64,000 nt of DNA from Clostridia bacterium (GCA_017626395.1 JAGAIU010000011.1:20917-84916), one strand, 5' to 3'; numbered from the stretch's first letter, positions 34,009 to 59,491 are shown. A program made the numbers and translations. The notes: generated by a model from the sequence alone, not told the origin.

Positions 34009-37000
34009 ATGGATTATCAAGAATTAGAGGACGTATACGAATTCCATAGAAATATGAGGAAAACTCCATGGTTGCAGTTGTTTCCACATTGGTGGGATGA
34101 AAATGACGCTTTATTAAACGCCATTGGTAATGAAGTAGAACGTGTCAAAGCACAAGCTGTTTTTGTTCTATTAAACGCAGGTATTAAACCACCAGTATTA
34201 TTATGGCAAGAATCAATTAATCATGAAACTTTTAATGCTCATTTCAACGCAAAACAATTACCAAAAACTGTAACAATTCAAGCACCACTTTATGAAACTT
34301 GGGGTAAGATTACGCTTACTAATAATACAGAGAAAGACATAGATGGTTTAATATTAAAACTTGATAATTCACATGGATATGCAATTAATCAATTAATTAC
34401 TCAAGAAGATATTTTAGTAATTAATTTAACAGAAAATAAAGTTCTTTTAAATAAAAAACAAATTGAGCCTCAAACCATAGGCGAAGGAATGCCATATTTC
34501 GTTACACAACAAAATAATGAAGTATACGATACAAACACACCATTACATAATGAAGTTATTAGATTAGAAATATCTACAAATGATACTGAAAATATTGAAT
34601 GTGATATTGACATTGACATTGAATTAGAAAATGCTGTCTTTACTAATGAACAAAATATCGAAATTACAGGTTTAGAAGCTGTACCAATTGATAGAGTAGA
34701 ATTATATGTTAAATATGATTTTTCATTTAACTCTAAATATAATGGATGGCAAAAAGCATGGGAAAAAGAATATGAGAAAAATACTAACGTAGTATACGAT
34801 AGAATTACTACACAGATATATACAAAAGAATTCTATGTCGATGTATACTTTAAAACACTTCAATACCCATATACTGTAGGATTCCCTTGTTACAAGGAAG
34901 CCACATCAAAGTCACCATATCATGTTAATAGCAGATTAGATAAATGGGGAGAGCAATTAGGTCTTCCAAGAAGATTATATAAAACTGAAATACCAACCAA
35001 TGAATATTATAGAACTTTTCCTATTTTTTATCCTTTCGACATTGAACAAGATTATTGGTATTATAAACGTTTAACTAGTGAATACTCTTGGGTAGAATCA
35101 CCTGTTAATGATGTAGACATTAAAGATACAGATGGTAATAATGTAATTAGATTGTATTCAATTAATCCATTTACAGAAGATTTCGCTGTCCATGCTAAAT
35201 CAAGATATCCAGTTGATAAAGAATTTATTAATTATAATGATTATCATCCAATTGCTATATCTCAACAAACAGCAAAAGATATAGGTGTGCAAACTCCTTA
35301 TAAAGATATAATTAATTTATTATCTGATAACAATAAAAAAGCATCAATTACATTAAACAACTATACAGACAACAACGATGTAGTCTATAAAAGAAATAAA
35401 TATTATCAAAAATACGATTACATTACAGAACTAGGTGAAGGAGTATATAGAGAGGGCTGGAAAGAGCCAGATAGTTATAAAAAAGATATATCATATATTA
35501 AAAGCAGTACACATCAATCTACAGAACTTATAACTTATTTTGATTTATCTAGTTTACCACAAGATGTTAATATTGAAAATATTGAATTTATTGTAGAAGC
35601 TGAATCTACTGATAATAAAAAAAATAAATATGCTACTGAAAATACTGGGGTATTAATTCCTAATTATAATGACTCTGAAAGATTTTTCATACCATTAACT
35701 GCCGATAAAAGTTATCAGTTAAAAAAGCAAGAAATTACTTATTCAAATGATGAAGTAATTGATTACTTAAATAACATTAAAATTGCAGATGAGAATATTA
35801 GGCAAAGTTTTACTATAGGTGAATTTCAAGGTAAGATTACTGATTTCGTAAAAATACCTTTTGAATTAGAAGAAAATAGTGAAAATGTTGATGATATTAC
35901 TGATGTATGGATATATTATAATGGAAACATTAGGCAAGCATCTTATAAGAATGATGAAAATGGTAAATATATTTATGCATACGTACCTAATTTACCAATA
36001 ATAAATACACTTACTATTATATGTAAATCACAAACACATAAGCCTTTTTCATACACTATTAATGTTAATAAGTATAATCAATACTCTGAAGATGGAACTA
36101 CAATAGAATATCAATACATACAAGGACCTATTGTTAATGATGAGCATAATGAAATATCTGACTACGTCGAATGGCACACAGATAACTTACGTAATTTAAT
36201 GCAAAAGCAAGGAATTTATTTCAGACATATATTAAAAAATACTGACGAACAAAGTTCAACAACAGTATTTTTATATAATATTCAAGCAAAAATTACATAT
36301 TCACCTAAAAAATCAAATTTTAAAATAACAACTAATATCACTAAAAAATCTGATTTCCCAAAAATAGGTACATTAAATATAAAAGTTGAAAATACTGGAG
36401 AAAAGAACTTTAGTAGTAATGTAGATATTATTACACCATCTAATATAGTATTATCACAAAATAATATACCAATAGATTTAAAAGTCGGTCAATCACTTGA
36501 AAAAGATATCGATATTACTGCTACATATCCAATTGATGATGGCTTTTATGATATTGTAACTATTTGTGAAGATTCTATAAAAAAAGATAGCATAGAAATT
36601 TTCTCTGATGGTTTAATAGCAACAGGTGTTAATCTTAAATCACATCATGGAAAATATAACGATACTATTAATTTAAAAGCTGAAGTATATGCTATTGATG
36701 GTGGTAAAATTAATGGGACAGATAGCCAAGTACAATTTTATATTAATGGATTTGCAGTTGGTAATAAAGTGCAAGTTGTAGATGGGTTAGTTGAAGCTTC
36801 AATTTCACCTAAAGATTACTATTTTACTGGTACTGGTAATTTAACATTAGAAGCAAAATTTTTAGGTACTACAAAATATGCTTCATCATCTAATAAATCA
36901 ACTATTTTTATTAGTAAAGATACAACACGTATAGAATTAATTTCTGATAATGTAGCACCATATAAGGGAGCTTTTGAATTAAAAGCTAAAGTAGAATATT

Positions 37001-40000
37001 ATAATGGTCAAGGATATGTTCCAGTAGATGCTGGAACTGTAGAATTTTATATAGATGATGAAATATTAAGTAGCAATACAACATTAGTAGATGGAGTATT
37101 TCTATCTTCTATTAATTCAATAGAAAACCCAGCAGGTAGTTATACATTATGGGCTAAATATTCAGGTACAGAATCTTATGTAGCTGTAGAAACATCACAA
37201 CCTTTTGAAATTATTGGTGGAAAAAGTAAAATATCTGTATTCGATATACAAGCAAAACCATATTCTATAATACAATTAAAAGCAAAAGTAACAGATGTAA
37301 ATAATAAAAATATAATTAGTGGATATGTAGATTTTAATATAAAAAATATACATGGCGAAGATGTAAATTTTAACACTAATATTACTAATATACCTGTTAA
37401 AAATGGTTTAGCAATATCTGATGATATATTATTAAGCGTTGAATTAGAATCAGATTTTAATACAGAAAGATACACTATTGAAGCAAAATACCATAATACT
37501 TTAGATTCAAATAACGATGAGTTATATGGGTCTAGTACAGCACAAGGTTATATTTTTGTAGCTAAAACAGATGTTATTTTAGATTATCAATCATTCTATG
37601 GTACACAATATGAACCTTTAGGTTTTTATGTTAGAGCAAGAGACGCAGAAACAGGTGCACCAGTATCTAATGGTAAAATAGCTATTACTTTAGAAACAGA
37701 AGGAGTAACTATTGAAGAAGAAGTAGATGATAAAGGAGTAGCTCGTTTAATTCATAATCCTTTAGATTTTAATGCAAAAGATTGGAGTGAATTAGAGAAA
37801 TTTTCTTTTGACGTTGTAGATGATGATTTACATAGATATTACAATGGAACAGAATTTATAGCTGATTTTGATTTCTTTTACAATGAACAAGATGGTACAT
37901 TACATTATATCAAAGGAAAACAAAATAATGAAAATAATGAAGTATCATTCATATATAATGCAGAAACTGGTAAATATGACATTATTGATACTGATACAAA
38001 TGATGTAATTGATGATTACGATAATGAACATTTATATATAACAAATGGTCATTTGTACGCAAGAACAACAAAAGATATATTGCGACAATATACAATTGGC
38101 ACACAAAATTTAAAAATCGAATACATTTCAAGTGGACAATATAGAAGTAAAACTGAATATTTTGATGATGGATTGCAAATTTCACAATCTAATATTGATT
38201 TAGATATACATTCATATGATTTAAAATATACAGATAACGATAGTATTATATGTTATGCAACAAAATACACTTTTACTGACGATATCAATACAGAAAATAT
38301 TAATAGTGGAAGTGTACAATTTATTGTAGACAATCAAGTATTAGATACAGTAAATATTGCTAATGGTAAAGCTATATTAAAAAATAGTCTTTTAACCAAT
38401 ATTAATGGTGGACAACATTTAATGTGCGTTAAATATGCTAATAATAATGATACTTCTTATTCTTATTCATTATTGAAGCTGACAAAAATGGAGCCATCAT
38501 TAAATATTTTAGTCGACCAAGAGATTAAAAATAAAAAATCTAATGTTATTGTTACTTTATCAGCTTCTGATAATTTAAATATACCTTTAAATGGATTGAT
38601 ATCATTATATTTAGATGATGAATTAATTGGCACACAATATCTTAATGGAAACGAGATGTTGCCTGGAATAATTGATGAATATAATATCGAAAGGTTAAAA
38701 GAAGAAATGCAATTATACTCTGAATCAGAACGTAACATATATATTCCTGGTGTTATTTTTAGTGTGTTAATGCCATATGATATAGATAATCATCAATTAG
38801 TAGCTAAATATGAGGGTAATGAGTTTTTGATGCCTAAAACTCAAACATATCAATTATCTCAAATACCTGCTGAAATACAAATTAATATAAAAAATAATAT
38901 TTATGTCGCTAGAAATGAGCCTTGTTTTATTGATGTTGATGTTACATATGAAGACGATATCATAAATGAAGGTAAAATAGTATTAACATATGGAGACGAA
39001 GAAATAGCATCATCAAATGTCCTTGACAATAAAGCTAGATTAACATGGACTCCATCATCAAATAATTTATTAAATACTTATGTAATTACTTACACAGGTT
39101 CAACAAATTACAAAGACAAACATATTACTGCAAATATAAATGTAATTGACCCACTTAAAACAATTACAATACCAAATGAACAACAACATACATTAGAAGA
39201 TGCATTAATGTGCTTACAATCAAATGGAACAATATACATTACAGACGATATTATATTAGAAAAAAGCATTGAAATCACAAAAGATTGTTCAATTATTGGT
39301 GAAAATGGTGTATCTATTATTAAGGATATTAAAGAGTTACCAATTGACTTTAATATTTTACAAAATATAAGCACAGAACAAATGCAACATATGTATAAGC
39401 TTGATTTATCTTTTGAAGATATTAATGCAACAGATTTTACTTTTATAGATAATCAGTTATATATAAAAGGTAAAACAGAAATGATACCTATATATTTAGC
39501 AGAGAATGGAGTATTTTATTCTGAAACACCATTATCAAAAATATTATCTGATTTAAATATTATTATAAAAGCAAATGTACATTTCGATAATTTAACCTTT
39601 AAATCTAATGACAGCAAAATATTAAATAATTTTGTAATTTATAACGAAAGCAATTGCTTAATTACTTATTCAATTATTGAAAAGACAGCTAAATTATATA
39701 ATAAAGGAAACATGACAGCCCATAGAAATCTAATCTATGGATTATGTCAAAATGTTACAGATTTAGATAATAATTGGTGGGGGTCAAATACACCACCATA
39801 CAACGTTAATAACCATATAATCATTGATGTTAAAGCAGTTAATACACCAGCAGTTATTAGCGAAGAAGTTGAAATAGAAGGAGAAATGATAGGTGCAAAT
39901 GGTCAATACTACACCATACCACAAACAGATTTTAGTTTTACTGCTGATAGTGGATATTTCTCTGTGGATACAGGTAAAGTAACAAATCAAAAAGCACATA

Positions 40001-43000
40001 CAACATATTTAGACGCTATTAAAGAAGGTAATGTTTACTTTACAGTTGATAATGAGACAGTAAAATGTCCAGTATATGATTATGAAAGAAAAACAGAAGT
40101 TATTATTGATGACATTGATGAAGTACTAATTAATTATCAAATGCCAATCACAGCAAAAGTACAAAGTTGTGCCGATGTATATTATGAATTTGACAATAAT
40201 AATAATATTACTGAAAGTACAAAAACAATCAATGAAGGATATATTGACTTCTATATCGATAACAAACAAGTAGGACATGAAGCTGTAAGAAAAGGTAAAG
40301 CTCAAGCAAAAATATTCTTTAAAGATGCAATTTATGAGGAAAACACAAAATACGAATTAAAAGCAATTTATCATTCATCTGATAATTATTTTGATTCTCA
40401 ATCATCAATTAATATAACAACTATTACAGATGAAGATGTTTGCTTTGTATCTACTTCAGGAAGTGATAATGGAAATGGTAATTATAGTAATCCTTTCTTA
40501 ACATTATCAAAAGCAATTGCATCTAATAATAAAAAAATATTTTTACTTGAAGGAGATTATTATGCTGAAAATATTATAGTCACACATAATGTATCTATTA
40601 AAAAATACAATGGAGAAGTGAATTTTTCAAATAATACAGGCAATATTTTATTTAATATACAACCTAATGTAAAATTAAATATTTCAAAAATTAATTTTAT
40701 AGAAAATCAAACAACAATATTATTTGACAATTCTGGTAGTTTAAATATAGAACAATGTATTTTTTATAAAAATAAAAGTACATTATTTAAAAATAACTTA
40801 ACATCAACTTTATTTTCAGTATCATTATGTGCTATAGTAGATAATTATTTAATATCTTCTAATATTAATCCTAATCATTATTCATATTGTTGGTTTGGAA
40901 CTAATTCCCCTTCAGATGATTTTAATGATTATATAGTAATGACTACTAAAGTATCAAAAGATAAAATATATATAGGTAGTTTAGCTCATATTACAGCAGA
41001 ATTGAAACATTATAGTCATAATGGAGTACAATATAATTTAGATAATCCATTACCATTAAGAATAGCTAAATTTGCCTCTGATATTGGTGAACTTAAACCT
41101 GTTAAAGATTACACTTATCATAATAGTAGTACAAGTTTAATTAATACATTAAAAGATAACAATACATCACAATATATTATTAAATTAAAAAATAGAGTAT
41201 ATTATGATTCAGAAAAAATTAATCTGTTATTTAATGTTACTAATGTATTTGACGAACCAGTAGAATCTGGAATTTTAAAAGTTGTGATTACAAGCGAGAA
41301 TAATAAATTAGAAAACACTATTGATATCATTAATGGTCAAGCTACTTATAATCTACCAACATTACCAATAGACGAATATAATGTTAGTTGCACATATATA
41401 AAAGAGCAAATATACAATTTAAATACAACTTTTGTTGTTAAACCATTAGATATTATATTGCAAAATATACAATTAGATGAGTTTTCACACTTATATTATA
41501 CTCATATTACTGGAACTGCTGTAGATAATTTAGGTCAAAATATTAACGATGAAATATTAGACATTAAAATTAATGATGACAATGTAGGGACATTAATAAT
41601 AAACGATGGCGTCATAAATCAACAAATATCCTATAATCTACTCAAACCAGGTCAATATGAAATTATTTTAACAAATGAAGATAGACGCACAAAATATGAT
41701 ACATTACACTATACAATACCTTTAATAGTTAAACCACAAAAAACATCCATTGCTTTTGATTATAATACTATTGAAAAAGATATTAGTAATAATCTTATTA
41801 TTGAAATATACGACAGCGAAGGTAGAGAAGTACAATCAGGAACAGTTAGAGTAGATTTTAATAACGTCATTTATGAAGAAAGTATATCAGTTAATAATGG
41901 TATCGCAATGTTAAATAACTTTAATATTGATAATAGTGGGCAATATCCAATTGCTATATATTATACCGATAATGATGGGTATTATAAAGACTCTGTTTAC
42001 ATCAATAATAACTTTGGTGTTGGCATATATGGCGTAACTTTTTCATTATCTGATACAGATATTATTACAGCAGATATAGGAAAACAATTTGCTTTAAATA
42101 CAACTATTAAAGATGTAGGTAATCAATTAGTGAATATAGGATATGTAAATGTTTACATTGATGACAGCTTGTACGTTCAAAACGTAGGAATCAATAATGG
42201 AAACGTAAGTATTATTTCAGAATTACCAGAAAATATATCTGCTGGACTACATAGACTTACTCTTGAATATATAGGCGATGATATATATTTAGATACTTAT
42301 TTAGATATTTATTTAAAAATAGGTCAAATTCAAACAGAAATAGGTATTATTAGTACTTCAGGTAAAAGTGGGCAAAAATCAACAATTAATTACACAATTA
42401 ATTCAATATATGGAAACGTTAATACTGGAACATTAACAGCTGTTTTCAACGAACAAATTATAGGTCAATCTATTGTTACTGATAATATTACTAATCAAAT
42501 AACATTTAATACACCATTTTTACCAGCAAATAATAACTATGAAATTACCTTTAAATATCACGACAGTAATAATAATTATGCAGATAGTAGTATTACAACA
42601 AAATTAATCATTGAAAGAAGTAATGTTATTATTACACCACAAAAAACATGGTATTATCCTCAAAAAGATTTTAATTTTATATTAGATGTAAGAGATGCCG
42701 AAGAAAAAATTATTGATAATGGTAAAATCGATTTATATGTTAATAATGTAAAAGAATATGAAGACATATCTATTGTTAATGGTCAAGCTGTTATTCCAAT
42801 GATTTTTAATAAGGCATCAACATATACTTTTGATATTGTATATCAAGAAGATGAATACTATTTACAAACTAAAAAAACAATTGACTTTAATGTTGATAGC
42901 GTTGTTATAGATGATATTAACTTTAAAGATGAATTGTCAAGCTTGCCAAATAGAATGTTTTCAACTGAATTAATCTTCACAACATTAGATGATTACATTG

Positions 43001-45456
43001 TAAAAGATGGTGTTGTCGATATTTTATTTGATAATAATGTCATAGCAAATTATTATATGGCTGAAAACAATAAATATGTTGATTTTAATATTGGAAATGA
43101 AACCAAAGGATTACATAAAATTACAATTAAATATTATAATTCATCATTATTTAAAGACTTTGAAAAAACATATGATTTCAATATAGAAGCTAAATCTATT
43201 GATTTACGTATTAACACAAATAGTGAATATCAAAGCCAAAACATTGAAGCTATTAGTAGCGATATTATCAGTATTCAAACTGATTTTATACTTGATAATA
43301 ATTATACTCCAATGTCTGGAATTGTTAATTATTACATAGGTATTCCACAATATAAGATTAACAGCAACAATGAAGAGTATATCGATAGTTACTACGATAG
43401 ACTTATTGGTCAAGAAGAGTTTATTAATGAGACATCTAAAACACATGAATATATTCTTACTAATGATTTATTAGCATATACTGCTGATAATTTAGAAACT
43501 CATTATAGAATTAAAGCACATTTCATAGGCAACGATGAATATGAAGAATCCATAGAAACAGTTGATTTAAATATATATAAGCAAAATACACATATTATTT
43601 TGCCTTCAGATATGCAATTTGAATATCAGAGCAAAATGAATGTTAATATAGATATTATTAATAATAATAATGAAAATATAATTGGCGTAGAAAATGTTGA
43701 TATATATTTAGACGATGTTTTAGTATCATCATGTAAAACTATAGATGGAAAAGGTACTTTTACTTATCAGTTAAAGAATAAACATGTTATAGGTACATAT
43801 GACTTACGTGCAGTATTTAATGGTTCAGCTGTTAATAATCCATCTGAAACTACTGTTAGTTTTACAGTAACACCATTTACACCAATACTTAAAACAAAAG
43901 ATATAGACATGTATATACATGGTCAAAATACTTTAGATAATATTATTTATGATAAAAATGGAGTTATTATAGAAAGTGGTACCCTTAAATATGATACTCA
44001 TAATGGCGTTTTAGAATCCAAACCTAATGTGCCAGATGTAGTATGGTTTGATTCTGCTTTCAGAGATGATTGGGAATTAGATGTAGAATATATTAGTGAT
44101 GATTTAACAAAATACAATAACTTTCATGATACAATTCATGTTCATATGCATAAAAACCCTATTGAATTATCAATATATGCACCAGAACAAATATATCGTG
44201 GCGTACCTTTTGATGTAACCTTAAAAGCAAAAGCCCCAACTACAGCATATGATGTGAATTTAGACTTTTATAAAGAAGATGATGAAAGATATGTCATGCT
44301 TAATGGCTCTACTACTATATCTTTAATTTACCCTACTACATTGGAAGATAATTCTATTATTGAGGATTATATTAAAACAGATGGTAATGATATTTTTGAA
44401 GCTAATGAAATTTTATTAAAATTAAAAGTTAAAAACCAAGATAATATTACTGTAAATACTTCAATACCAGAATCAGCAACTAACACACATTCAATTCAAA
44501 AAGCAATTGATTTAGTAAGTGATTATGGTAGTATAGAAATAAGTACGCCAATAAGTAATCAAACAATTAATTTAACTAAAAATCTTACAATCAAAGGCGA
44601 TGCTACACTAACAAATTGTGTAATTAATAACGAAAGCAATAAAATACGTATTGATGGACTTACCTTTGAAAATGGAGAAGACACATGTATCAATAACAAT
44701 GCAAACATGACCATAATGAATTGTACATTTAAAAACAATCAAAATTCAGCAATAAAAACAAATGGAGAATTAAACGTTACACAATGTACATTTATAGGCA
44801 ATAATGCAGAAAAAGGTGCATGTATAAAAATCGGCAATAAAAATTATAAAACTAGCATTACATACTGTACTTTTAATGGAAATAATGCATCATTATATGG
44901 TGGATGTATTTATTCTGATAAAGTAAATGACATGGAAATATATAATAATGAATTCTCAAATAATAACAATGCTGGTGTTGGTGGTTCATCTATATGTGCT
45001 TATGGAGATATAGCAATTTCATTTAATACATTTTTCAATAATGCAGGAACTAGCGATATTTACTTATTACGTGGAACAACAGTATTAGAAAATAATTTAT
45101 TTGATGGTGCTATTACATCATTAAAAACACTTGATGGTAATGATATAGATTGTGATTTAAATTACTGGGGTTATAATGATATTAATGATATTTATAGTAA
45201 TAACCCTAATATTGAAATAAATAACTTTTTAATATCTGATTGCGAAATCATAGAAAAAGAAACTGGAAATTATATTATAGGTAGGATTAATAAATATATA
45301 AATCGTTTAGAAAGTGAAATTACTACTATAAATATATTAGAAAAACATTTCCCAGTTAAATTAAATGAAGAGCAATTTTATTTAAATGATGAGATAGCTA
45401 TTGAAATGAATGATACCTTTATGATAGGTCAAGATATAATTCATATTGAACATTGA
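34009..45456 (+). CDS. giant adhesin-like tail fibre/receptor-binding protein (3815 aa): Ig-like repeat arrays plus three parallel beta-helix modules
   Basis: Many about 90-aa repeats with the G-x-V-x-F-x-I(N/D)...A-x-Y-x-G...Y signature. Three right-handed beta-helix (PbH1-like) blocks rich in N-x-(A/S/G) rungs, each ending in an N-x-W(W/F)G-x-N-(S/T)-P-like motif (39769..39795, 40884..40910, 45161..45181). Follows the baseplate genes. Confidence 0.7.
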   Translation: MDYQELEDVYEFHRNMRKTPWLQLFPHWWDENDALLNAIGNEVERVKAQAVFVLLNAGIKPPVLLWQESINHETFNAHFNAKQLPKTVTIQAPLYETWGKITLTNNTEKDIDGLILKLDNSHGYAINQLITQEDILVINLTENKVLLNKKQIEPQTIGEGMPYFVTQQNNEVYDTNTPLHNEVIRLEISTNDTENIECDIDIDIELENAVFTNEQNIEITGLEAVPIDRVELYVKYDFSFNSKYNGWQKAWEKEYEKNTNVVYDRITTQIYTKEFYVDVYFKTLQYPYTVGFPCYKEATSKSPYHVNSRLDKWGEQLGLPRRLYKTEIPTNEYYRTFPIFYPFDIEQDYWYYKRLTSEYSWVESPVNDVDIKDTDGNNVIRLYSINPFTEDFAVHAKSRYPVDKEFINYNDYHPIAISQQTAKDIGVQTPYKDIINLLSDNNKKASITLNNYTDNNDVVYKRNKYYQKYDYITELGEGVYREGWKEPDSYKKDISYIKSSTHQSTELITYFDLSSLPQDVNIENIEFIVEAESTDNKKNKYATENTGVLIPNYNDSERFFIPLTADKSYQLKKQEITYSNDEVIDYLNNIKIADENIRQSFTIGEFQGKITDFVKIPFELEENSENVDDITDVWIYYNGNIRQASYKNDENGKYIYAYVPNLPIINTLTIICKSQTHKPFSYTINVNKYNQYSEDGTTIEYQYIQGPIVNDEHNEISDYVEWHTDNLRNLMQKQGIYFRHILKNTDEQSSTTVFLYNIQAKITYSPKKSNFKITTNITKKSDFPKIGTLNIKVENTGEKNFSSNVDIITPSNIVLSQNNIPIDLKVGQSLEKDIDITATYPIDDGFYDIVTICEDSIKKDSIEIFSDGLIATGVNLKSHHGKYNDTINLKAEVYAIDGGKINGTDSQVQFYINGFAVGNKVQVVDGLVEASISPKDYYFTGTGNLTLEAKFLGTTKYASSSNKSTIFISKDTTRIELISDNVAPYKGAFELKAKVEYYNGQGYVPVDAGTVEFYIDDEILSSNTTLVDGVFLSSINSIENPAGSYTLWAKYSGTESYVAVETSQPFEIIGGKSKISVFDIQAKPYSIIQLKAKVTDVNNKNIISGYVDFNIKNIHGEDVNFNTNITNIPVKNGLAISDDILLSVELESDFNTERYTIEAKYHNTLDSNNDELYGSSTAQGYIFVAKTDVILDYQSFYGTQYEPLGFYVRARDAETGAPVSNGKIAITLETEGVTIEEEVDDKGVARLIHNPLDFNAKDWSELEKFSFDVVDDDLHRYYNGTEFIADFDFFYNEQDGTLHYIKGKQNNENNEVSFIYNAETGKYDIIDTDTNDVIDDYDNEHLYITNGHLYARTTKDILRQYTIGTQNLKIEYISSGQYRSKTEYFDDGLQISQSNIDLDIHSYDLKYTDNDSIICYATKYTFTDDINTENINSGSVQFIVDNQVLDTVNIANGKAILKNSLLTNINGGQHLMCVKYANNNDTSYSYSLLKLTKMEPSLNILVDQEIKNKKSNVIVTLSASDNLNIPLNGLISLYLDDELIGTQYLNGNEMLPGIIDEYNIERLKEEMQLYSESERNIYIPGVIFSVLMPYDIDNHQLVAKYEGNEFLMPKTQTYQLSQIPAEIQINIKNNIYVARNEPCFIDVDVTYEDDIINEGKIVLTYGDEEIASSNVLDNKARLTWTPSSNNLLNTYVITYTGSTNYKDKHITANINVIDPLKTITIPNEQQHTLEDALMCLQSNGTIYITDDIILEKSIEITKDCSIIGENGVSIIKDIKELPIDFNILQNISTEQMQHMYKLDLSFEDINATDFTFIDNQLYIKGKTEMIPIYLAENGVFYSETPLSKILSDLNIIIKANVHFDNLTFKSNDSKILNNFVIYNESNCLITYSIIEKTAKLYNKGNMTAHRNLIYGLCQNVTDLDNNWWGSNTPPYNVNNHIIIDVKAVNTPAVISEEVEIEGEMIGANGQYYTIPQTDFSFTADSGYFSVDTGKVTNQKAHTTYLDAIKEGNVYFTVDNETVKCPVYDYERKTEVIIDDIDEVLINYQMPITAKVQSCADVYYEFDNNNNITESTKTINEGYIDFYIDNKQVGHEAVRKGKAQAKIFFKDAIYEENTKYELKAIYHSSDNYFDSQSSINITTITDEDVCFVSTSGSDNGNGNYSNPFLTLSKAIASNNKKIFLLEGDYYAENIIVTHNVSIKKYNGEVNFSNNTGNILFNIQPNVKLNISKINFIENQTTILFDNSGSLNIEQCIFYKNKSTLFKNNLTSTLFSVSLCAIVDNYLISSNINPNHYSYCWFGTNSPSDDFNDYIVMTTKVSKDKIYIGSLAHITAELKHYSHNGVQYNLDNPLPLRIAKFASDIGELKPVKDYTYHNSSTSLINTLKDNNTSQYIIKLKNRVYYDSEKINLLFNVTNVFDEPVESGILKVVITSENNKLENTIDIINGQATYNLPTLPIDEYNVSCTYIKEQIYNLNTTFVVKPLDIILQNIQLDEFSHLYYTHITGTAVDNLGQNINDEILDIKINDDNVGTLIINDGVINQQISYNLLKPGQYEIILTNEDRRTKYDTLHYTIPLIVKPQKTSIAFDYNTIEKDISNNLIIEIYDSEGREVQSGTVRVDFNNVIYEESISVNNGIAMLNNFNIDNSGQYPIAIYYTDNDGYYKDSVYINNNFGVGIYGVTFSLSDTDIITADIGKQFALNTTIKDVGNQLVNIGYVNVYIDDSLYVQNVGINNGNVSIISELPENISAGLHRLTLEYIGDDIYLDTYLDIYLKIGQIQTEIGIISTSGKSGQKSTINYTINSIYGNVNTGTLTAVFNEQIIGQSIVTDNITNQITFNTPFLPANNNYEITFKYHDSNNNYADSSITTKLIIERSNVIITPQKTWYYPQKDFNFILDVRDAEEKIIDNGKIDLYVNNVKEYEDISIVNGQAVIPMIFNKASTYTFDIVYQEDEYYLQTKKTIDFNVDSVVIDDINFKDELSSLPNRMFSTELIFTTLDDYIVKDGVVDILFDNNVIANYYMAENNKYVDFNIGNETKGLHKITIKYYNSSLFKDFEKTYDFNIEAKSIDLRINTNSEYQSQNIEAISSDIISIQTDFILDNNYTPMSGIVNYYIGIPQYKINSNNEEYIDSYYDRLIGQEEFINETSKTHEYILTNDLLAYTADNLETHYRIKAHFIGNDEYEESIETVDLNIYKQNTHIILPSDMQFEYQSKMNVNIDIINNNNENIIGVENVDIYLDDVLVSSCKTIDGKGTFTYQLKNKHVIGTYDLRAVFNGSAVNNPSETTVSFTVTPFTPILKTKDIDMYIHGQNTLDNIIYDKNGVIIESGTLKYDTHNGVLESKPNVPDVVWFDSAFRDDWELDVEYISDDLTKYNNFHDTIHVHMHKNPIELSIYAPEQIYRGVPFDVTLKAKAPTTAYDVNLDFYKEDDERYVMLNGSTTISLIYPTTLEDNSIIEDYIKTDGNDIFEANEILLKLKVKNQDNITVNTSIPESATNTHSIQKAIDLVSDYGSIEISTPISNQTINLTKNLTIKGDATLTNCVINNESNKIRIDGLTFENGEDTCINNNANMTIMNCTFKNNQNSAIKTNGELNVTQCTFIGNNAEKGACIKIGNKNYKTSITYCTFNGNNASLYGGCIYSDKVNDMEIYNNEFSNNNNAGVGGSSICAYGDIAISFNTFFNNAGTSDIYLLRGTTVLENNLFDGAITSLKTLDGNDIDCDLNYWGYNDINDIYSNNPNIEINNFLISDCEIIEKETGNYIIGRINKYINRLESEITTINILEKHFPVKLNEEQFYLNDEIAIEMNDTFMIGQDIIHIEH

Positions 45457-45564
45457 TATAATAACGAAGAAATAGACTCTTTATTTAATAATAAATCCGA
45501 TGTTAATCACAACCATGATGATTACGAAAACGATATCAATGATTTATTTAATAGAATTGGATAA
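45457..45564 (+). other. 35-codon in-frame extension after the TGA stop of the giant fibre gene, homologous to a module found twice more (no start codon of its own)
   Basis: In frame with 34009..45456. YNNEEIDSLFNNKSDVNHNHDDYENDINDLFNRIG then TAA at 45562..45564. No in-frame ATG/GTG/TTG. Confidence 0.3.
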
Positions 45565-45572
45565 GAGATATA

Positions 45573-46916
45573 ATGATAGATAATATTAGATTTTATGATT
45601 CTGAACATACAGTAAAAATTTCTATTGATAATGAGACTCAAGAAGAGCCTATTTACGAAATAGAAAAAATGGCATCTTATATAATATCAAATAATGCTAT
45701 TGATGTATCATTAAATGAAGATATCCATATTGATGCATCATTATGTTATGTTCCATATGATAAAACAATAGAAAAGGAAATAGACTCACCTAAAATAATA
45801 GATTTAGATGGAACAGTTACTATAACAATATCTGATGATAATAAAATTTTTTATCAAAATAATGTTCTCTTTAAAAGAGGTAATATAAAAGATGTTATAC
45901 CTAATAAGTTACCTTTAGGCGAATATAATGCTATTATTGAATTTGATGGCAATAAATATTTATCTTATACAAGATTAAATATTAATTTCAATGTTACTAA
46001 ACGAAAAACAAATTTTATATTTGATGAAAATAATTATTATGGATATCCAGACACATCTATTCAAATATCAGGTAAATTAAAAGATACATTAACAAATAAG
46101 CCAGTAAAAAATTGTATTATTAATTTTGACTATAATGGAGACACATATTCTACTACCACTAATAATATGGGAGAGGCTTTTATAAAGCTAAATATACCAG
46201 ATGTAGATATATCACATTGTTTTAATGATGAAAACGTTCCAAATATGTCTTATCCAATAACTTTATCTTTAGATAGTGAATCATATGAAATCTATAATAG
46301 TATGACAAATATCATCACTATGAAATTACCTACAGATGTAACAATTAATCAACAAACAGATATAATAAATAATAACGTTACTATTGGTGGATATGTAACA
46401 GCTCAATATCCTACTGAATCTAAAAATGCTCAATATGGAAAAGTAGTGGTATCTTTTCAAGATACAGATTATGTGAGTTCGCCAGTTAATATCGGTTCAG
46501 ATGGTAATTTTTCATTAAGTATAAATTTTGCTGATGTAAATGAATTTAACAATAAATCTAATATTACAGAATTAGTAATGTATCAAAAAGCTACAGAACA
46601 AATTACATCTATTAATTTAGAAGTTGAAGATACAACTATTCAAAAAGGGGAGCTAATAACTGCCATTGCAAATGTATTTTCACAAGAATCATCTGATTAT
46701 GTAAAAGATGGTATGGTAGTATTTATTTTAGAAAATAACAATCATAAAGAAATCTATAGATATGCTACACAAATAGATAGTATTGGACAATCAGTTTTTT
46801 TATTTAATACGTCTATGTCAGGTAAATATTATGTTAAAGCATATTATTATGGTATTTTTGGTTTTTTAAATTCAGAAAGTAAAACAATAGAAGTAGAGGT
46901 AGAAAATGTCATATAA
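45573..46916 (+). CDS. Ig-like repeat fibre-associated protein (447 aa)
   Basis: Big-like repeats (ITISDDNKIFYQNNVLF..., VKNCIINFDYNGDTYSTTTNNMGEAFIKLNIP). RBS and start at 45573. Confidence 0.5.
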   Translation: MIDNIRFYDSEHTVKISIDNETQEEPIYEIEKMASYIISNNAIDVSLNEDIHIDASLCYVPYDKTIEKEIDSPKIIDLDGTVTITISDDNKIFYQNNVLFKRGNIKDVIPNKLPLGEYNAIIEFDGNKYLSYTRLNINFNVTKRKTNFIFDENNYYGYPDTSIQISGKLKDTLTNKPVKNCIINFDYNGDTYSTTTNNMGEAFIKLNIPDVDISHCFNDENVPNMSYPITLSLDSESYEIYNSMTNIITMKLPTDVTINQQTDIINNNVTIGGYVTAQYPTESKNAQYGKVVVSFQDTDYVSSPVNIGSDGNFSLSINFADVNEFNNKSNITELVMYQKATEQITSINLEVEDTTIQKGELITAIANVFSQESSDYVKDGMVVFILENNNHKEIYRYATQIDSIGQSVFLFNTSMSGKYYVKAYYYGIFGFLNSESKTIEVEVENVI

Positions 46917-47511
46917 TACAGATTTAGGTAGAGTAAAAGGAGATAAGGGAACTACATATATTCCTAAAATTACTCTTGAAAATGGAAAACAATATATATC
47001 TTACGAATCAGATGATGGAACACCAATTCCTAGTGCTTTACAAAAAAAAGAATTTACTTCATTTGTATATAAACCATCATTAGATGAAAATGGTAACTTA
47101 TCTTTTGTATTAAGTAGTGATTTAACTGCTATTTTAAATTTAGGTAATATTAAAGGTCCAGTTGGAGAGTCTACAATTGGAATTAGAGTTGTCGACGCAG
47201 AACCAGAGTATAACAATTTATCTGATGCAGAAAAAACTTTAATTACAAATGGAAACAGTCATATTTATGTAATTGACACCGATGAAGCATATCTCGGTGC
47301 TGGTGTATTCAAAAAAGATGGTTCTTTTAAATATTTAGAGAGCAAGCTTCGTTTTGATAATTATTATCTTAAAACAGAAACTTATCATAAAGATGATGTA
47401 TATAATAAACAAGAAATAGCCACTCAATTAGGAAGTATTATCGAACAGCAAAATGCTATAACTGCTATGCTTGGAGATACTGATGCTATTATTATTCCAG
47501 ACGATGAATAG
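46906..47511 (+). CDS. hypothetical fibre-associated protein with collagen-like G-x-K-G start and C-terminal coiled coil
   Basis: MSYNTDLGRVKGDKGTTYIPKI...; C-terminal KQEIATQLGSIIEQQNAITAMLG. ATG overlaps the upstream gene end. Confidence 0.4.
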   Translation: MSYNTDLGRVKGDKGTTYIPKITLENGKQYISYESDDGTPIPSALQKKEFTSFVYKPSLDENGNLSFVLSSDLTAILNLGNIKGPVGESTIGIRVVDAEPEYNNLSDAEKTLITNGNSHIYVIDTDEAYLGAGVFKKDGSFKYLESKLRFDNYYLKTETYHKDDVYNKQEIATQLGSIIEQQNAITAMLGDTDAIIIPDDE

Positions 47512-47519
47512 GTGATTCA

Positions 47520-50159
47520 ATGGCTTCTTACAATGATGTATTAGAAAATTATCAATCAATTAATCAATCAATTAATAAATTACGTAAATACTTAATTAAT
47601 CAATTAAAAAAATGTTATATTACTGATATAGATGATTATAACTTTACAGAATTAATAGAAGCAGTTGGAACAATAAAAGCAACCGAATATCATAATAGTA
47701 ATAATAAGAAACCATTAAATGAGCCAAAAATTAATAGTAGTAATTTAACAACATATAATCAAACATTATATCAAAAAATACGTTATTATATGAGAACATT
47801 GGCTTATTTTTTAGTGCTCAAAGGAGTGTCAAATGCACAAGTTGCACAACAAAAAGATTTAAAAGGATTAATATCTTTAATTGACCAAATTAATGTCAGA
47901 GTGCCATCATCATTAATAATACAAAATATTACAGAAGATTATTATTATGGGTCATTAATTACATTAGATTATTCATTAACAGATATTAATGGTTATGATA
48001 TTCAAGAAGGTGAAATTATAATTGAATCTAATGGTATTGTTTATGATTCAATTAAAGTTGGAGAGCAGTTATCTTTCTTGCCAATAGCTATTAGTGATAA
48101 AGATAGCAATGGATATATACCAACTACTTTTACTTTTACATACCATGGGTCAGACAATTATGACGATTCATATCCTATTACAAGAGATATTATTATTAAA
48201 CCAAGTAAAGTTAATATAGAAATTTCACCTTTCAATGTAAATGAAAAAAGTAAATATTATCTACAAACAGACATAGGATATCAGACAGATGAATGGGAAA
48301 TATATATATGGGCTAGTAATTTTCAAGGTGGTTTAGAAGACGTACCACTTCAAATAACAATTAATAATGAAACATTTGAAGAGATTACTGACGAAGATGG
48401 TGGTTTTCTTTTAAAAACTACAATTAATAACGTAGGTATACAAAAAATTATAGTTGAAAGTATTTATGAAAATACTGACGATATTACAAACACAACAGCA
48501 GAATTTACTTTTAATATTAAGTATTACCCATTGTATCAAGCTAAAGACTCTTATAACGATTATTTAGGAAAAGCATCATATACATATGAGCTTACTATTA
48601 TTAATGAGGATACAGGCAAAAATAACGATTTATTAATAACCAATAAAGATGTATCAATATCATTAGATGGGCAAATTATAGGCACAACACGTATAATAAA
48701 TAACAAAGCTATATATACAATTCCAACACCTTATATTACACAAGGAGAACATATTTTATATTGGAATAATGAAGGCAATCAAGCACAAACTTTTATTAAT
48801 TTATATTCCAATTTTATATTACCTGATACTGATAAATTTTACATTGATAATACTCCAGATGTAATATATGCTCCATTACAGACAGAATACTATAATACAA
48901 GTGATTGGAATCCAATAGCTGGAAAAGAAGTCAATGCTTCTATTAAATATAATAAAATTATTAACGTAGAACATGATGACGATACAGATACAGACATTGT
49001 TGAAAAAGAAACTACCAATTATAATGTTACTTTGACTACAGATAGCAATGGTGTACTAACTGGATTAAAAGATTATGTAGATATTGGTGAATATGAAGTT
49101 GTTTTGACATCTAATTCAGATTCTTTATCTGAAACTATTACATATAAGTATGAAGAAACAGAACCATATGTAATAACTACAAATCAATATTCTAAAAGAA
49201 ATCCTTTTGAACTTGAAATACAAGTTGAAATATATGATAATGATTTTTTAAATGTACAATCTTATCTTACCAATAATACAAATACCATAGAAGGCATAAA
49301 GAGAATTGAAAACGATAATATTTTAACATTTTATTATGGTCAAAATATAACAGAAGGTCAATATACTCATTATTTAAAATTAAATGATAAAATTATCAAT
49401 GATGATTTAAATTTTAGTTTTATATCAAATCCTCTAGCATTATTAACAAATGTCGTAACTATTGGGACAAACCATATATCATTAAGTTGTACAGACGATA
49501 GTATTGAAGCAATTACTTTAGAAAGTGATTATATAATTGCTAATGAAATTACCAAAGAAAATGGCGTATTTGATATTGATGCTACATTTTTAAAAGTTGG
49601 TGAAAATACTTTCACTATACATACAGAAGATGAAGAATTTGAATTTTCTATTACTGTAGAAAAAAGTGACCTTTTACCAAGTATTGTAGTACAAAAAGTT
49701 ACACCTAATGGACAAACACAAATAATTTATGATGAAGATACTGGCGAAGAGCAAACTATCGTAATGGATTTAATTGAAGAAGTTGATGAAATTGATTCAG
49801 AAGATTTAAACAATATTGATGTTTTATTATTATTTGAAAACGAATTAATTGAAGATATTGATGTTACATTCTTCTTTGATGATGTAAGCGTTGAAACATA
49901 TACTATAACAGCCGAAGAAGATGAAAATAAAGTATTTAAAATACCTAATACAAATACAGGAAATCATACATTATCTTTTATTTATACTGCAAGTGTTGAT
50001 GACAGCTATAATTCTTTTAGTGTAGAAAAAGAAATTTCTATTATTACAATTTCATACTCTAAAGAAGAATTTAATAATATGCTATTAGAATATGCAGATA
50101 CCAATCATACTCATGCACAATATGAAGAAGCCATCAATGATATATGGGAGAGATTATAA
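47520..50159 (+). CDS. Ig-like repeat fibre protein (879 aa) ending in the conserved EE-x-N...HxH...YE...IND module
   Basis: Repeats of the Y-x-G-S-D-N-Y-D-D-S / G-x-Y-E-V-V-L-T-S type. C-terminus KEEFNNMLLEYADTNHTHAQYEEAINDIWERL. Confidence 0.5.
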   Translation: MASYNDVLENYQSINQSINKLRKYLINQLKKCYITDIDDYNFTELIEAVGTIKATEYHNSNNKKPLNEPKINSSNLTTYNQTLYQKIRYYMRTLAYFLVLKGVSNAQVAQQKDLKGLISLIDQINVRVPSSLIIQNITEDYYYGSLITLDYSLTDINGYDIQEGEIIIESNGIVYDSIKVGEQLSFLPIAISDKDSNGYIPTTFTFTYHGSDNYDDSYPITRDIIIKPSKVNIEISPFNVNEKSKYYLQTDIGYQTDEWEIYIWASNFQGGLEDVPLQITINNETFEEITDEDGGFLLKTTINNVGIQKIIVESIYENTDDITNTTAEFTFNIKYYPLYQAKDSYNDYLGKASYTYELTIINEDTGKNNDLLITNKDVSISLDGQIIGTTRIINNKAIYTIPTPYITQGEHILYWNNEGNQAQTFINLYSNFILPDTDKFYIDNTPDVIYAPLQTEYYNTSDWNPIAGKEVNASIKYNKIINVEHDDDTDTDIVEKETTNYNVTLTTDSNGVLTGLKDYVDIGEYEVVLTSNSDSLSETITYKYEETEPYVITTNQYSKRNPFELEIQVEIYDNDFLNVQSYLTNNTNTIEGIKRIENDNILTFYYGQNITEGQYTHYLKLNDKIINDDLNFSFISNPLALLTNVVTIGTNHISLSCTDDSIEAITLESDYIIANEITKENGVFDIDATFLKVGENTFTIHTEDEEFEFSITVEKSDLLPSIVVQKVTPNGQTQIIYDEDTGEEQTIVMDLIEEVDEIDSEDLNNIDVLLLFENELIEDIDVTFFFDDVSVETYTITAEEDENKVFKIPNTNTGNHTLSFIYTASVDDSYNSFSVEKEISIITISYSKEEFNNMLLEYADTNHTHAQYEEAINDIWERL

Positions 50160-50302
50160 TGACAGAATACTATACTAAAGAAGAAATCAACGAATTATTA
50201 GAAGGGAAAAGTAATATTGACCATAGACATACCATTTATGAACAGCAAATTCAAGAAATCAATGATTTACTTGATGATTTAGAAGCAGAAGTACTTGGTT
50301 AA
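50159..50302 (+). CDS. small ORF (47 aa) that is a stand-alone copy of the fibre C-terminal module
   Basis: taATG overlap with the upstream stop. MTEYYTKEEINELLEGKSNIDHRHTIYEQQIQEINDLLDDLEAEVLG. Below the 60-aa track threshold, found by hand. Confidence 0.4.
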   Translation: MTEYYTKEEINELLEGKSNIDHRHTIYEQQIQEINDLLDDLEAEVLG

Positions 50303-50455
50303 TTATATAGATTAGATAAGAAAGATTACAATATTAATATTTTTGTTTAAAAGGTAATAAAAATGTTGTTTGAGTTTAAAATTTATGATAGAGAAATAAT
50401 CAAATCAAATAGCATTGGAAAATGAACTGTTAGATTTAGAGGAGGATTTATTATC

Positions 50456-52467: not shown

Positions 52468-53547
52468 ATGCTTACAATATATGAATTAAGAGATTATTTA
52501 GAAGAATTTATTGAAGAAAAAAAAGAAGTAAAAAATATCACAAATGCTACGATGAAAAAGCAAACCATTAATATAAAAAATTTTATAAAATGGCTAGAAA
52601 AAGAAAACATACAACAAATAGACAACAGAAATATAAAGAGATGCTTAAGAAAATATCGTAGCTACTGCTTAAATGAAAGGAATAATAAAAGAACCACAGT
52701 CAAGACATACCTGCTAAATGTGATAGATTTTTTAAATTACGAAGAAATCAGAATAATAACAGGACATGAAAAAATACACATCAAAGAAATAATAGAAGTC
52801 AAAAGCGAAAATCCTGATACAGCAAGAAAACGTATTGAAAAAATATCACTAACAAGAAAACAAACTGATTTCTTTTTAGACACAGTAAAAAGAACTGGCA
52901 ACATTAAAAACTATGCAATATGCAGAACTTTTATTGAAACTGGCATGAGATTAAAAGAACTTGTACTATTAGATAAAACAGATATAAAAGTACCATTAAA
53001 TAAACAAGGACTTTATATACTACCAAACGATAAATATGAAATAATTGAAGTACATTTAAGAGCAGAAAACACAAAAGGACAATACAAAAGCAGAACCACA
53101 TTTATAACATATGACACACTTGTTGCTATCAATCAAATGATAATGTCACGCATAATCGACTACCAAAAAAAGAAATATCAACGTGATATAATTAAAGTCA
53201 GAAAAAAAAGAGTAGAAAACGAAATAAATCGTCAAGAACTATTTACAGCAGAAGGAGATAGAAGATTCACCAGACGTGGAGTACAAAGTTTAATTAAGCA
53301 ACAAACAAAAAACTGCGATACAAGAATAGAAGAAGAAAATATAAAATGCCCAATCAATTACTTTAAAAATGTTAGCACACATATATTAAGACACACAGCA
53401 TTATCTCGTTACGCTGAAATATTAACAGTAGCAGAAGTGCAAACAATAGCTGGACATGCTAGTAGTTCTACAACAGATAGATACATACATATTGACCATA
53501 GTAAAATAAAAGAAAAAATTAGAATGAGTATGGAGGAAGATAAATGA
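52468..53547 (+). CDS. int: tyrosine recombinase / phage integrase
   Basis: Arg I in ETGMRLKEL. H-x-x-R in HILRHTALSRYAE. Catalytic Tyr context GHASSSTTDRYIHI. N-terminal SAM-like domain. 359 aa. Confidence 0.85.
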   Translation: MLTIYELRDYLEEFIEEKKEVKNITNATMKKQTINIKNFIKWLEKENIQQIDNRNIKRCLRKYRSYCLNERNNKRTTVKTYLLNVIDFLNYEEIRIITGHEKIHIKEIIEVKSENPDTARKRIEKISLTRKQTDFFLDTVKRTGNIKNYAICRTFIETGMRLKELVLLDKTDIKVPLNKQGLYILPNDKYEIIEVHLRAENTKGQYKSRTTFITYDTLVAINQMIMSRIIDYQKKKYQRDIIKVRKKRVENEINRQELFTAEGDRRFTRRGVQSLIKQQTKNCDTRIEEENIKCPINYFKNVSTHILRHTALSRYAEILTVAEVQTIAGHASSSTTDRYIHIDHSKIKEKIRMSMEEDK

Positions 53548-55540: not shown

Positions 55541-55713
55541 GCCTCCTGTAATAATGTTATAGTTTGTATAGTAAAACTAAAAAATATCATTCCAAATAAA
55601 AAAGAAGGTAAATTTAAAGGATATTGTGTATTAATAACACCTGCAAATATTAATATAATTGGTGCTATAACAGCACAATATATTATTAAAATAAATATAG
55701 GTTTCCATTTCAT
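55531..55713 (-). CDS. small membrane protein (60 aa)
   Basis: Two hydrophobic helices (IFILIIYCAVIAPIILIFAGV; FLFGMIFFSFTIQTITLL). Overlapping start/stop with its neighbours. Confidence 0.35.
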   Translation of the reverse strand: MKWKPIFILIIYCAVIAPIILIFAGVINTQYPLNLPSFLFGMIFFSFTIQTITLLQEAWK

Positions 55714-56141
55714 AATAATCTTAAATCTCCAGTAATATTATCTATATCTTCCCTAGTAAAAGGACCAATACCTAAACAAGTAATTGAGCCATTAGTTACT
55801 TCAGTACGTCCTTCATCAATTACTAAAGCATTAGGAATCTTTTGTTCATCAGCTGCTCTTTTTAACTCTAATAAATCTGAAGTTGTCTCAACTTGTAAAA
55901 CAATTTTAGGATAAGAATTATCCAACCAACCAGCAGCTACAGACTCATTAGCTTCTAATAAAGATAATACTGATGCATGAGCTACTTGTGCAGCAATCTT
56001 ACCAACTGACATTCCTAAACTTTTATTAACCACTATAACTTGTTTGAAGTCTCCATCTTTGAAATTTTTATTAAATTTAATTGCTCTTAAAAAACCATTT
56101 GCTTTTAAAACATCTATTTTAACATTGTTTGTATCTTTCAT
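55710..56141 (-). CDS. pth2: peptidyl-tRNA hydrolase, archaeal/eukaryotic type (Pth2)
   Basis: GMSVGKIAAQVAHASV and DEGRTEVTNGSITCLGIGPFTREDIDNITGDLRLL align closely with the PTRH2/Pth2 family (KMGKGKVAAQCSHAAV ... [35 protein letters not shown]). 143 aa. Confidence 0.85.
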   Translation of the reverse strand: MKDTNNVKIDVLKANGFLRAIKFNKNFKDGDFKQVIVVNKSLGMSVGKIAAQVAHASVLSLLEANESVAAGWLDNSYPKIVLQVETTSDLLELKRAADEQKIPNALVIDEGRTEVTNGSITCLGIGPFTREDIDNITGDLRLL

Positions 56142-56145
56142 AATA

Positions 56146-58500: not shown

Positions 58501-58612
58501 TTAAAATCACCATATAGTATTCGATATAATTAATCATATAATTAATTATGCAATTAATCATTTAAATACTTAACTACTTTAGAAATTACAGTATTAATTT
58601 AAGGTGATAGTC
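58501..58612. promoter_or_regulatory. divergent promoter/operator region with three contiguous 12-bp direct repeats (ATAATTAATCAT / ATAATTAATTAT / GCAATTAATCAT at 58526..58561)
   Basis: Read directly. Lies between the leftward accessory operon and the rightward endolysin gene. RBS aaggtga at 58601..58607. Confidence 0.4.
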
Positions 58613-59491
58613 ATGACTAAAAAAGAAAACGTTGCTAAAATAGCAAAAGAAGTTAAAACAAGCGTGGAAAAAAAATATAAAATTCCAAGCAAAACAGATG
58701 CAGGAATAGGATATACCTATCCTGAATATGCATATATATTAGCAAAAGCAGTTATAACACCAGGTAAAGATGTTGCACATAAAAAGAACATAGGTGAGGC
58801 ACCTAAACCTTCTGGAAGTACAATATCAAGAACAGTTAAAAAAGGAGACTATGTAAAATTAGCTAAAAATTTAATATCTTTTGTAGACAATAACAAAAGA
58901 CTACCAAATTATCTTACATATGGTGGATACAAAATTAGAACTAGAGTATATATTGATGCTTTTGCCAGAATAGTTAATTATTATTACACTAATAAAAGAA
59001 TGCCTGCTTATGTAAATGTAAACAGTAAAGCATTTACCAAACCATCAACAGCAGCACAAAGTAAAGACGAAGTATTTAATTACTTTGTTAAAAAATTCGG
59101 TAATGTTAAAACTATCGATGAAGCCTTTAATAAGGTAAAAGAACGGGGATATGGATATTATTACGACGACGTCTACTCTAACAAGACTTCTATCGATAGA
59201 ATGTATTCTAAATCAGGTATTAACTGTACAGACAGTTGTCAAGTATTTTGGCACATAGGTAAAGCATTAGGATATTCCGTTCGTTGTTTACACGTTAGAT
59301 GTTCAGGTGGAGATGGACACGTAAGATTACAGTTTAAACATCCTAAAAATACAGAAGGAAATTGGATTAATCGTGACCCAGCTGCAATTTTATCAGCTAA
59401 TGGTCGTCCATTAACTTATAATTGGTGTACTTCCAATTACACATTATTAGCGACTAATCCGAGCTGGTTTACTGCTAATCTCAACAGATAA
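58613..59491 (+). CDS. PeiW/PeiP-like pseudomurein endoisopeptidase (endolysin) with pseudomurein-binding repeat; ORF-track start 58604 is a GTG, and the ATG at 58613 is preferred
   Basis: N-terminal KGDYVKLAKNLISFVDNNKRLPNYLTYGGYKI plus a second partial copy (...NKRMPAYVNV) resembles the PMBR. C-terminal NCTDSCQVFWHIGKALGYSVRCLHVRCSGGDGHVRLQF...NWINRDPA is the Cys-His-Asp core. Confidence 0.7.
   Translation: MTKKENVAKIAKEVKTSVEKKYKIPSKTDAGIGYTYPEYAYILAKAVITPGKDVAHKKNIGEAPKPSGSTISRTVKKGDYVKLAKNLISFVDNNKRLPNYLTYGGYKIRTRVYIDAFARIVNYYYTNKRMPAYVNVNSKAFTKPSTAAQSKDEVFNYFVKKFGNVKTIDEAFNKVKERGYGYYYDDVYSNKTSIDRMYSKSGINCTDSCQVFWHIGKALGYSVRCLHVRCSGGDGHVRLQFKHPKNTEGNWINRDPAAILSANGRPLTYNWCTSNYTLLATNPSWFTANLNR

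Follow-up and report, generated by a model that had tools for sequence, protein, structure and literature searches.

A PTR/HxH module behind the stop codon of a giant tail-fibre gene in a methanogen virus: a C-terminal tag probably silenced by a recent glycine-to-TGA change

The fibre gene, its stop codon and the three module copies

The window analysed here, a stretch of 64,000 nucleotides (nt) of "Clostridia bacterium" (GCA_017626395.1, JAGAIU010000011.1:20917-84916), belongs by its gene content to a tailed virus that is temperate and infects a methanogen with a pseudomurein wall. One of its genes encodes a giant tail fibre, and the TGA stop codon of this gene is followed, directly and in frame, by a short conserved peptide module (module A) of which two further copies (B and C) occur downstream. 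We consider it likely that module A is a C-terminal fibre tag that was recently silenced by a change of GGA to TGA at the junction. The features on which this argument turns, including two open reading frames (ORFs) named by their length in amino acids (aa) or by the copy they carry, are the following:

34009..45456, + strand: giant tail-fibre or adhesin-like gene; its product of 3815 aa has Ig-like repeats and, at the C-terminus, a right-handed beta-helix
45454..45456, + strand: TGA stop, a derived nonsense codon; glycine in close relatives (GGA) and in a distant one (GGT)
45457..45564, + strand: module A, 35 in-frame codons of one PTR/HxH fibre-repeat unit, followed by TAA
47520..50159, + strand: ORF 879, with module B as its C-terminus; the arrangement is kept in the related contigs L018 and L019
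50159..50302, + strand: ORF C, 47 aa, made up of one PTR/HxH unit and, behind it, a longer helix at the C-terminus

The domain assignment of the fibre rests on a weak Beta_helix Pfam match in its last 499 aa on Big_3_5 and a Baseplate_J neighbour in the gene tables, and on a structure model of a relative's C-terminus in which the beta-helix is confident. Its C-terminus reads ...MIGQDIIHIEH-TGA, and the frame behind the TGA continues as YNNEEIDSLFNNKSDVNHNHDDYENDINDLFNRIG up to a TAA (45562-45564), shortly before the next gene begins; peptides of this frame would be HIEH-X-YNNEEIDSLFNNK across the stop and SDVNHNHDDYENDINDLFNR. Module A contains no internal stop and no indel, and all residues of the motif are kept. 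The preliminary description of this DNA had pointed out that the module, placed in frame directly behind the fibre TGA, has no start codon of its own, and indeed ATG, GTG and TTG are absent from its 35 codons. It is most likely untranslated in the window.

The three copies of about 32 aa, which the same description had listed (the one behind the fibre stop, the fused one and the free-standing 47-aa one; here A, B and C), were recovered at 45457, 50055 and 50171 and share the pattern Y-x-K/N-E-E-I/F-D/N...H-x-H...Y-E...I-N-D. Module B (50055..50156) forms the last 34 residues of ORF 879, YSKEEFNNMLLEYADTNHTHAQYEEAINDIWERL and then stop, and copy C (from 50171) is the core of ORF C, MTEYYTKEEINELLEGKSNIDHRHTIYEQQIQEINDLLDDLEAEVLG and then stop; Y, EE, H-x-H, YE and IND are invariant across all three. 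Their resemblance stood up to the shuffling that had been proposed as a check on it: each pair has 12 identities in 32 positions and an ungapped BLOSUM62 score of 63-73, against a mean of about -16 (standard deviation about 12.5) for shuffled sequences (z 6.6-6.9), and none of 20,000 shuffles scored as high as observed. When the entire window was scanned in six frames, the top matches of each copy were the other two, with the next score at 37 or below.

A profile built from the three copies and searched against 1.84 billion representative proteins (E ≤ 1e-3) matched 1122 proteins, most of them with 5-25 matched stretches apiece, and these proteins are tandem arrays of ...HDDRYYTETEIDNLLAGKADDPHDHDDRYYTE... 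This argues against a new element and for one unit of the PTR/HxH repeat (YYTExEIDxLLxGKSDxxHxHDDRY) that is widespread in phage tail fibres. All three copies carry the PTR signature Y-x-[KTN]-x-E-[IFV]-[DN]-x-[LM]-[LF]-x-x-[KY]-[SA]-[DN]-x-x-H-x-H, and multi-repeat proteins among the profile matches pass the Pfam family PF12789 (PTR, "phage tail repeat like"), with 31.7, 40.5 and 32.9 bits for P0007, P0024 and P0131, respectively. A 52-aa ORF with a single unit fell short of the cut-off of 27 bits with a score of 16.5 (E 0.0089), and modules A and B gave no match to the PF12789 hidden Markov model. The setting is that of a tail fibre, with the genes downstream of Baseplate_J and furnished with Ig-like and beta-helix domains, and the unit is followed by a short amphipathic helix with hydrophobic residues spaced 4-3-4 in YENDINDLFNRI.

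The module thus shares with PF12789 the signature Y-x-K/T-x-E-I-D-x-L-L-x-x-K-S/A-D-x-x-H-x-H and its occurrence in tail-fibre proteins. It differs from the family's arrays of 5-25 tandem copies in that a single unit is found here, which either closes the C-terminus of a longer protein or makes up a 47-aa protein of its own, in that an amphipathic helix of 10-20 aa follows the unit, and in that the host is an archaeon. A repeat common in bacterial phages is thus also in use among Methanobacteriales viruses, where it takes the form of lone C-terminal tags and of a very small free-standing protein. A blastn search of the region against GenBank phages gave no match, the exact module DNA pattern was absent from the IMG/VR, JGI metagenome and GTDB genome sets searched, and sequence searches of the PDB returned nothing significant, the sole suggestive match being the T5 L-shaped fibre (E 0.47).

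Allele states at the fibre junction

The preliminary description had proposed aligning orthologous fibres to see whether the module is fused where this genome has TGA, and this is what the relatives show. In five close relatives (P0001 on contig L002, P0174 on contig L011, P0170, P0172 and P0173), all about 96–97% identical and all members of the window fibre's 90% cluster, the module is joined through a GGA glycine codon at the position of the window's TGA, so that these fibres read ...HIEH-G-YDNEKIDSLF...NRIG before their stop. On L002 (ENA, about 96% nt identity) the junction is CAT GGA TAT, against CAT TGA TAT in the window, and the fibre runs on into the module (...HIEHGYDNEKIDSLFDNKSDVNHNHDDYENDINDLFNRIG, then stop); L011 (Logan, 96.6% nt identity over 14.3 kilobases) encodes a fibre of 3851 aa that is likewise fused through GGA. 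The cluster as a whole holds two different fused variants of 3850 aa, one of 3851 aa, a fragment of 873 aa whose end is fused, and two 3815-aa proteins, one of them that of the window. A fused module is present even in the distant contig L012, whose homologue of the next gene (ORF 447) is 57% identical. There the junction codon is GGT (in short, ...IERG-FNANEIDNLLDDYADIDHTHSQYE...), the fibre ends ...IGQDTIYIERG-FNANEIDNLLDDYADIDHTHSQYEDELNNLSNRLGR and then stop, and its PTR unit has diverged, with 14/34 residues (41%) identical to module A.

Of all fibres compared, that of the window is nearest to a fused one: over 3814 aligned residues there are 60 differences to P0174, against 112-140 to each of the others, and 13 informative sites group it with P0174. 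This places the TGA on the window's terminal branch, where it is a single derived G-to-T change. The glycine codons of the fused orthologs, together with this closeness to a fused allele, lend support to one of the two options that the preliminary description had left standing, namely a freshly decayed fusion. The TGA allele is real rather than an error, since an identical 3815-aa fibre protein is found on 10-14 assembled contigs and the junction is identical to the window's in L003 and L004, which come from different archives.

Within the module the window differs from L011 and L002 together by three non-synonymous and no synonymous changes, and on the terminal branches of the two fused alleles about five synonymous changes stand beside a single non-synonymous one. 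The family consensus and L012 suggest an origin in the fused lineage for the E/K change at least. We regard the module A remnant as very young. Around the junction (45397-45490) differences between the window and L002 are dense, with some 16 substitutions, most of them non-synonymous, within about 100 nt, and from 45524 to 45653 window, L011 and L002 are identical.

A third allele has no module at all. In L019 (P0171, 3815 aa; 96.3% nt identical upstream) the fibre ends ...HIERG-TGA without the 108-nt module, and ORF 447 starts 7 nt past that TGA. In the more distant L001, P0002, P0004, P0005 and P0006 the fibre ends 3-9 residues past a conserved IGQ motif, with the next gene within about 10 nt of the fibre end or overlapping it. 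The C-terminal tag is accordingly dispensable, because the truncated fibre of the window is equivalent to that of a naturally module-less relative. In the fused alleles the hexamer TGGATA borders the module on both sides (CATGGATATGAT ... ATTGGATAAGAG), which is compatible with gain or loss of the module by an in-frame indel between these short direct repeats.

A second, independent case of a stop followed by an in-frame remnant occurs at the fibre 3' end of a related virus group, L013-L017 (five contigs; e.g. L013, 9800-10001), in which a 3819-aa fibre ends ...YKIDISANKPII-TAA and 30 in-frame codons follow, NGENTEITILIKDKYERGMENKTINLYKGDE-TGA. This stretch looks like the beginning of an Ig-like domain that the following gene truncates, and the P0003 fibre continues into such a domain. 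The fibre genes that appear split in L006 and L012 are interrupted by scaffold Ns and not by in-frame stops. Tag-fused, tag-silenced and tag-less alleles thus coexist in one species-level clade, at the fast-changing 3' end of a giant adhesin-like fibre gene, and this bears on how viruses of gut and rumen methanogens vary their host-recognition apparatus.

Silencing, read-through and other accounts of the stop codon

The course of events that we favour can be described as follows. In this virus lineage the giant fibre would have carried a fused PTR/HxH unit as a tag at its C-terminus, and a single G-to-T transversion would then have turned the junction glycine codon GGA into TGA in the sequenced strain. 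Translation would now end one residue ahead of the tag, and the 35 codons past the stop would represent a young, intact and untranslated remnant. Several points weigh against this. The TGA allele is the one most often assembled (10-14 contigs) and so is not obviously deleterious; the perfectly intact state of module A is predicted by functional read-through as well, and recency explains it equally well; the substitutions in the module appear too few to show relaxed constraint; and basal leakage of UGA at the fibre stop is possible.

The other option of the preliminary description, programmed read-through of the TGA, is not supported. If read-through were functional, be it programmed or tolerated, a minor 3851-aa fibre with the HxH tag would be made and virions would hold mixed chains, and the module does stand directly behind the stop, in frame and with every conserved residue intact, on an allele that is common in assemblies. 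UGA is, moreover, generally the leakiest stop codon. However, the stop is not conserved: it is confined to a single TGA sequence type, the nearest relatives have GGA in its place, and L019 lacks the module altogether. No stimulatory context or structure was found 3' of the TGA either, as the 136 nt around and after it fold with a minimum free energy (-15.9 kcal/mol) no better than that of shuffled sequences (mean -14.75 kcal/mol; z -0.41), Rfam (including the selenocysteine insertion sequence, SECIS) yielded 0 matches in 44500-51500 at E ≤ 1, and the base at +4 is U. No tRNA gene, suppressor or selenocysteine (Sec) tRNA genes included, was detected within the 64-kilobase window. In archaea, finally, read-through of termination codons is documented only for Sec and pyrrolysine (Pyl) (review, PMC8211752). 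The parallel with known programmed UGA read-through, such as that producing the Qβ A1 coat protein, lies in the in-frame module past the stop of a virion protein. Unlike that case and the archaeal Sec and Pyl cases (PMC8211752), the stop here is unconserved, has no stimulator and is replaced by glycine in the nearest relatives. Taken together, we find functional read-through improbable, and slightly more so a reading with a leaky UGA in the methanogen host and a virus that benefits from a mixture of tagged and untagged fibre chains. If the latter were true, it would be the first standard-amino-acid read-through extension of an archaeal-virus structural protein, and the polymorphism of GGA, TGA and deletion in the population would set the amount of HxH clamp.

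The history could also be read in reverse, with the TGA as the ancestral state: module DNA would have landed behind the original stop, and a later stop-loss from TGA to GGA would have given the fused forms. Distant orthologs such as L001 (...IGQEIFNIGG, then stop) do end at the alignment column of the window's TGA, and the change is one step in either direction. Yet the window fibre is most similar to a fused allele, and a startless, in-frame and motif-perfect module would be unlikely to last untranslated until it was fused. A junction glycine is also found both in the module-less L019, where GGA is followed by TGA, and in the distant fused L012 (GGT), so that parsimony calls for one change of GGA to TGA on the window branch; we therefore give the reverse order very little credence. 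Hardly credible, lastly, is an artefact, whether a sequencing or assembly error at 45454 or a TGA read as sense (genetic code 4 or 25, or selenocysteine). It is true that the alleles differ by a single base, that TGA means glycine in genetic code 25 and that the relatives have glycine here. Against this, the same base recurs in independent assemblies of different archives, TGA ends 9/35 ORFs (four of them as ATGA stop-start overlaps), and neither a tRNA gene in the window nor a SECIS or other Rfam match in 44500-51500 is at hand to decode it. The orthologs have glycine and not cysteine, and the host is a pseudomurein methanogen, not a code-25 bacterium; translation is archaeal and follows the standard genetic code.

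Silencing of a fused tag thus remains our preferred explanation, and the locus can serve as a cautionary case, in that a motif-perfect in-frame module behind a stop mimics recoding, and near-identical metagenomic relatives reveal what would be an ordinary nonsense polymorphism.

Possible role of the module, neighbouring genes and the host

Where the module is translated, namely in the fibres of the relatives, in ORF 879 and in the 47-aa protein, it would form a short helix, an HxH loop and a second helix. In a trimeric fibre a single metal ion would be bound by six histidines contributed by the three chains, with the helices on either side packed into a short coiled coil, and the module would act as a trimer clamp or as a tag that sets the register. 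An AlphaFold2 monomer model of the P0001 C-terminus shows a confident beta-helix and then, in the module, a helix (224-230), an NHNH loop and another helix (241-252). Confidence over the module is low (predicted local distance difference test, pLDDT, 31-36), which may be put down to the fact that such an element is expected to need oligomerisation. In solved trimeric fibres and spikes, HxH motifs place six histidines from three chains around Fe(II) or Zn in octahedral geometry (PMC6116203, PMC11705849). The suggestion of the HxH module as a trimer clamp or metal site fits these known motifs: the T4 gp37 tip, R-type pyocin fibres and the P2 gpV spike likewise have an invariant H-x-H in a fibre protein. 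They share no sequence similarity with the module beyond HxH.

Another likeness is to the foldon of T4 fibritin, which is likewise a small C-terminal add-on of about 30 aa on a trimeric fibre, not needed by the remainder of the fold and plausibly setting chain register. Its sequence is unrelated and it is a beta-hairpin propeller, whereas a helix-loop-helix is predicted here, with a role that is putative.

The genes between the fibre and module B are two:

45573..46916, + strand: ORF 447, 447 aa, with an Ig-like Big_3_5 domain (Pfam); the next gene after the fibre in all relatives
46906..47511, + strand: ORF 201, 201 aa, a conserved small fibre-module protein with a C-terminal YY-x-K...coiled-coil motif that lacks HxH

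The position of ORF 447 behind the fibre is conserved in L001, L005, L006, L011, L012, L013 and L019. ORF 201 and its homologues in L001, L005 and L006, all about 200 aa long, end DNYY(T/L)K...EI(D/A)..(L/I)GSI.EQQ..I..MLG, a motif similar to the opening half of the PTR unit with a coiled coil attached, but without HxH, and this C-terminus may be a degenerate relative of the PTR/HxH module. A profile of ORF 201 found a single contig in IMG/VR, JGI metagenomes and GTDB genomes, and this was L001 itself.

The start codon of ORF C overlaps the stop codon of ORF 879 (TAATG), which suggests translational coupling. ORF C is called as a 47-aa gene on other contigs, and the order ORF 879, TAATG, ORF C recurs in L018 (a contig of 701 nt) and L019; copy C of L018 has two non-synonymous and two synonymous changes relative to the window. 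The L013 group has a free-standing protein of 91 aa that contains a PTR unit and matches both PTR and Phage_fiber_rpt. Its gene directly precedes the ORF 616 counterpart, just as ORF C precedes ORF 616 in the window; it follows a 493-aa gene, however, and not the counterpart of ORF 879, behind which ORF C stands. Since the arrangement is kept in L018 and L019 and since L013 has this positional counterpart, ORF C looks like a real small gene, putatively for a small trimeric fibre component or an assembly factor.

Other links between the copies were considered and set aside. A programmed frameshift from ORF 879 into ORF C would lack a slippery heptamer, and the TAATG, kept in L018 and L019, is better read as coupling; a search with a concatenated query of the ORF 879 end and the ORF C protein gave nothing. 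The modules are poor candidates for recombinase sites or cassettes, the copies being direct, only about 37% identical as proteins and poorly conserved as DNA, and they have no evident link to the tyrosine recombinase, which resembles an ordinary integrase. A heterotrimer of A, B and C joining three proteins stays speculative, because B and C are unchanged in L019, which lacks A, so that the copies do not co-vary.

Similarity of L002 to the window ends at about 46737, inside ORF 447, which makes L002 either a chimeric metagenome contig or the site of a recombination point. That of L018 and L019 ends at about 50412, where, after the intergenic region behind ORF C, other genes take the place of the window's ORF 616. 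These breaks indicate that distal fibre genes are exchanged as a mosaic.

Two further genes bear on the nature of the virus and its host:

52468..53547, + strand: tyrosine integrase (Pfam Phage_integrase, E 3.5e-11), as of a temperate virus or provirus, adjoining the fibre gene block on its downstream side
58604..59491, + strand: pseudomurein endoisopeptidase (Pei) with PMBR repeats (Pfam Peptidase_C71 55.1 bits, PMBR 46.4 bits, both above the Pfam cut-offs)

The structural module comprises a terminase (Pfam), Baseplate_J and a 2832-aa ORF (17239-25737), which is possibly the tape measure and which, with the 3815-aa fibre (34009-45456), is one of two unusually long structural genes. Beyond the integrase begin minus-strand genes (PTH2 and RlaP homologues, 55710-56988), a layout typical of a temperate virus, and a Big_3_5/Big_1 protein lies past the lysin at 59660-60871. 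A Pei with PMBR repeats is the hallmark lysin of Methanobacteriales viruses, and the terminase (ORF 2118-4109) matches, among GenBank phages, solely viruses of that order; terminase, integrase and Pei lysin mark the virus as a tailed one, and the lysin and the terminase matches together identify a pseudomurein-walled methanogen of the order Methanobacteriales as the host. Its genus is probably Methanobrevibacter, given the low G+C content (29% over the window) and sample names that resemble animal-gut sets. NCBI holds the identical fibre protein as MBO5476280.1, from a metagenome-assembled genome labelled "Clostridia bacterium", a label that is probably a binning error.

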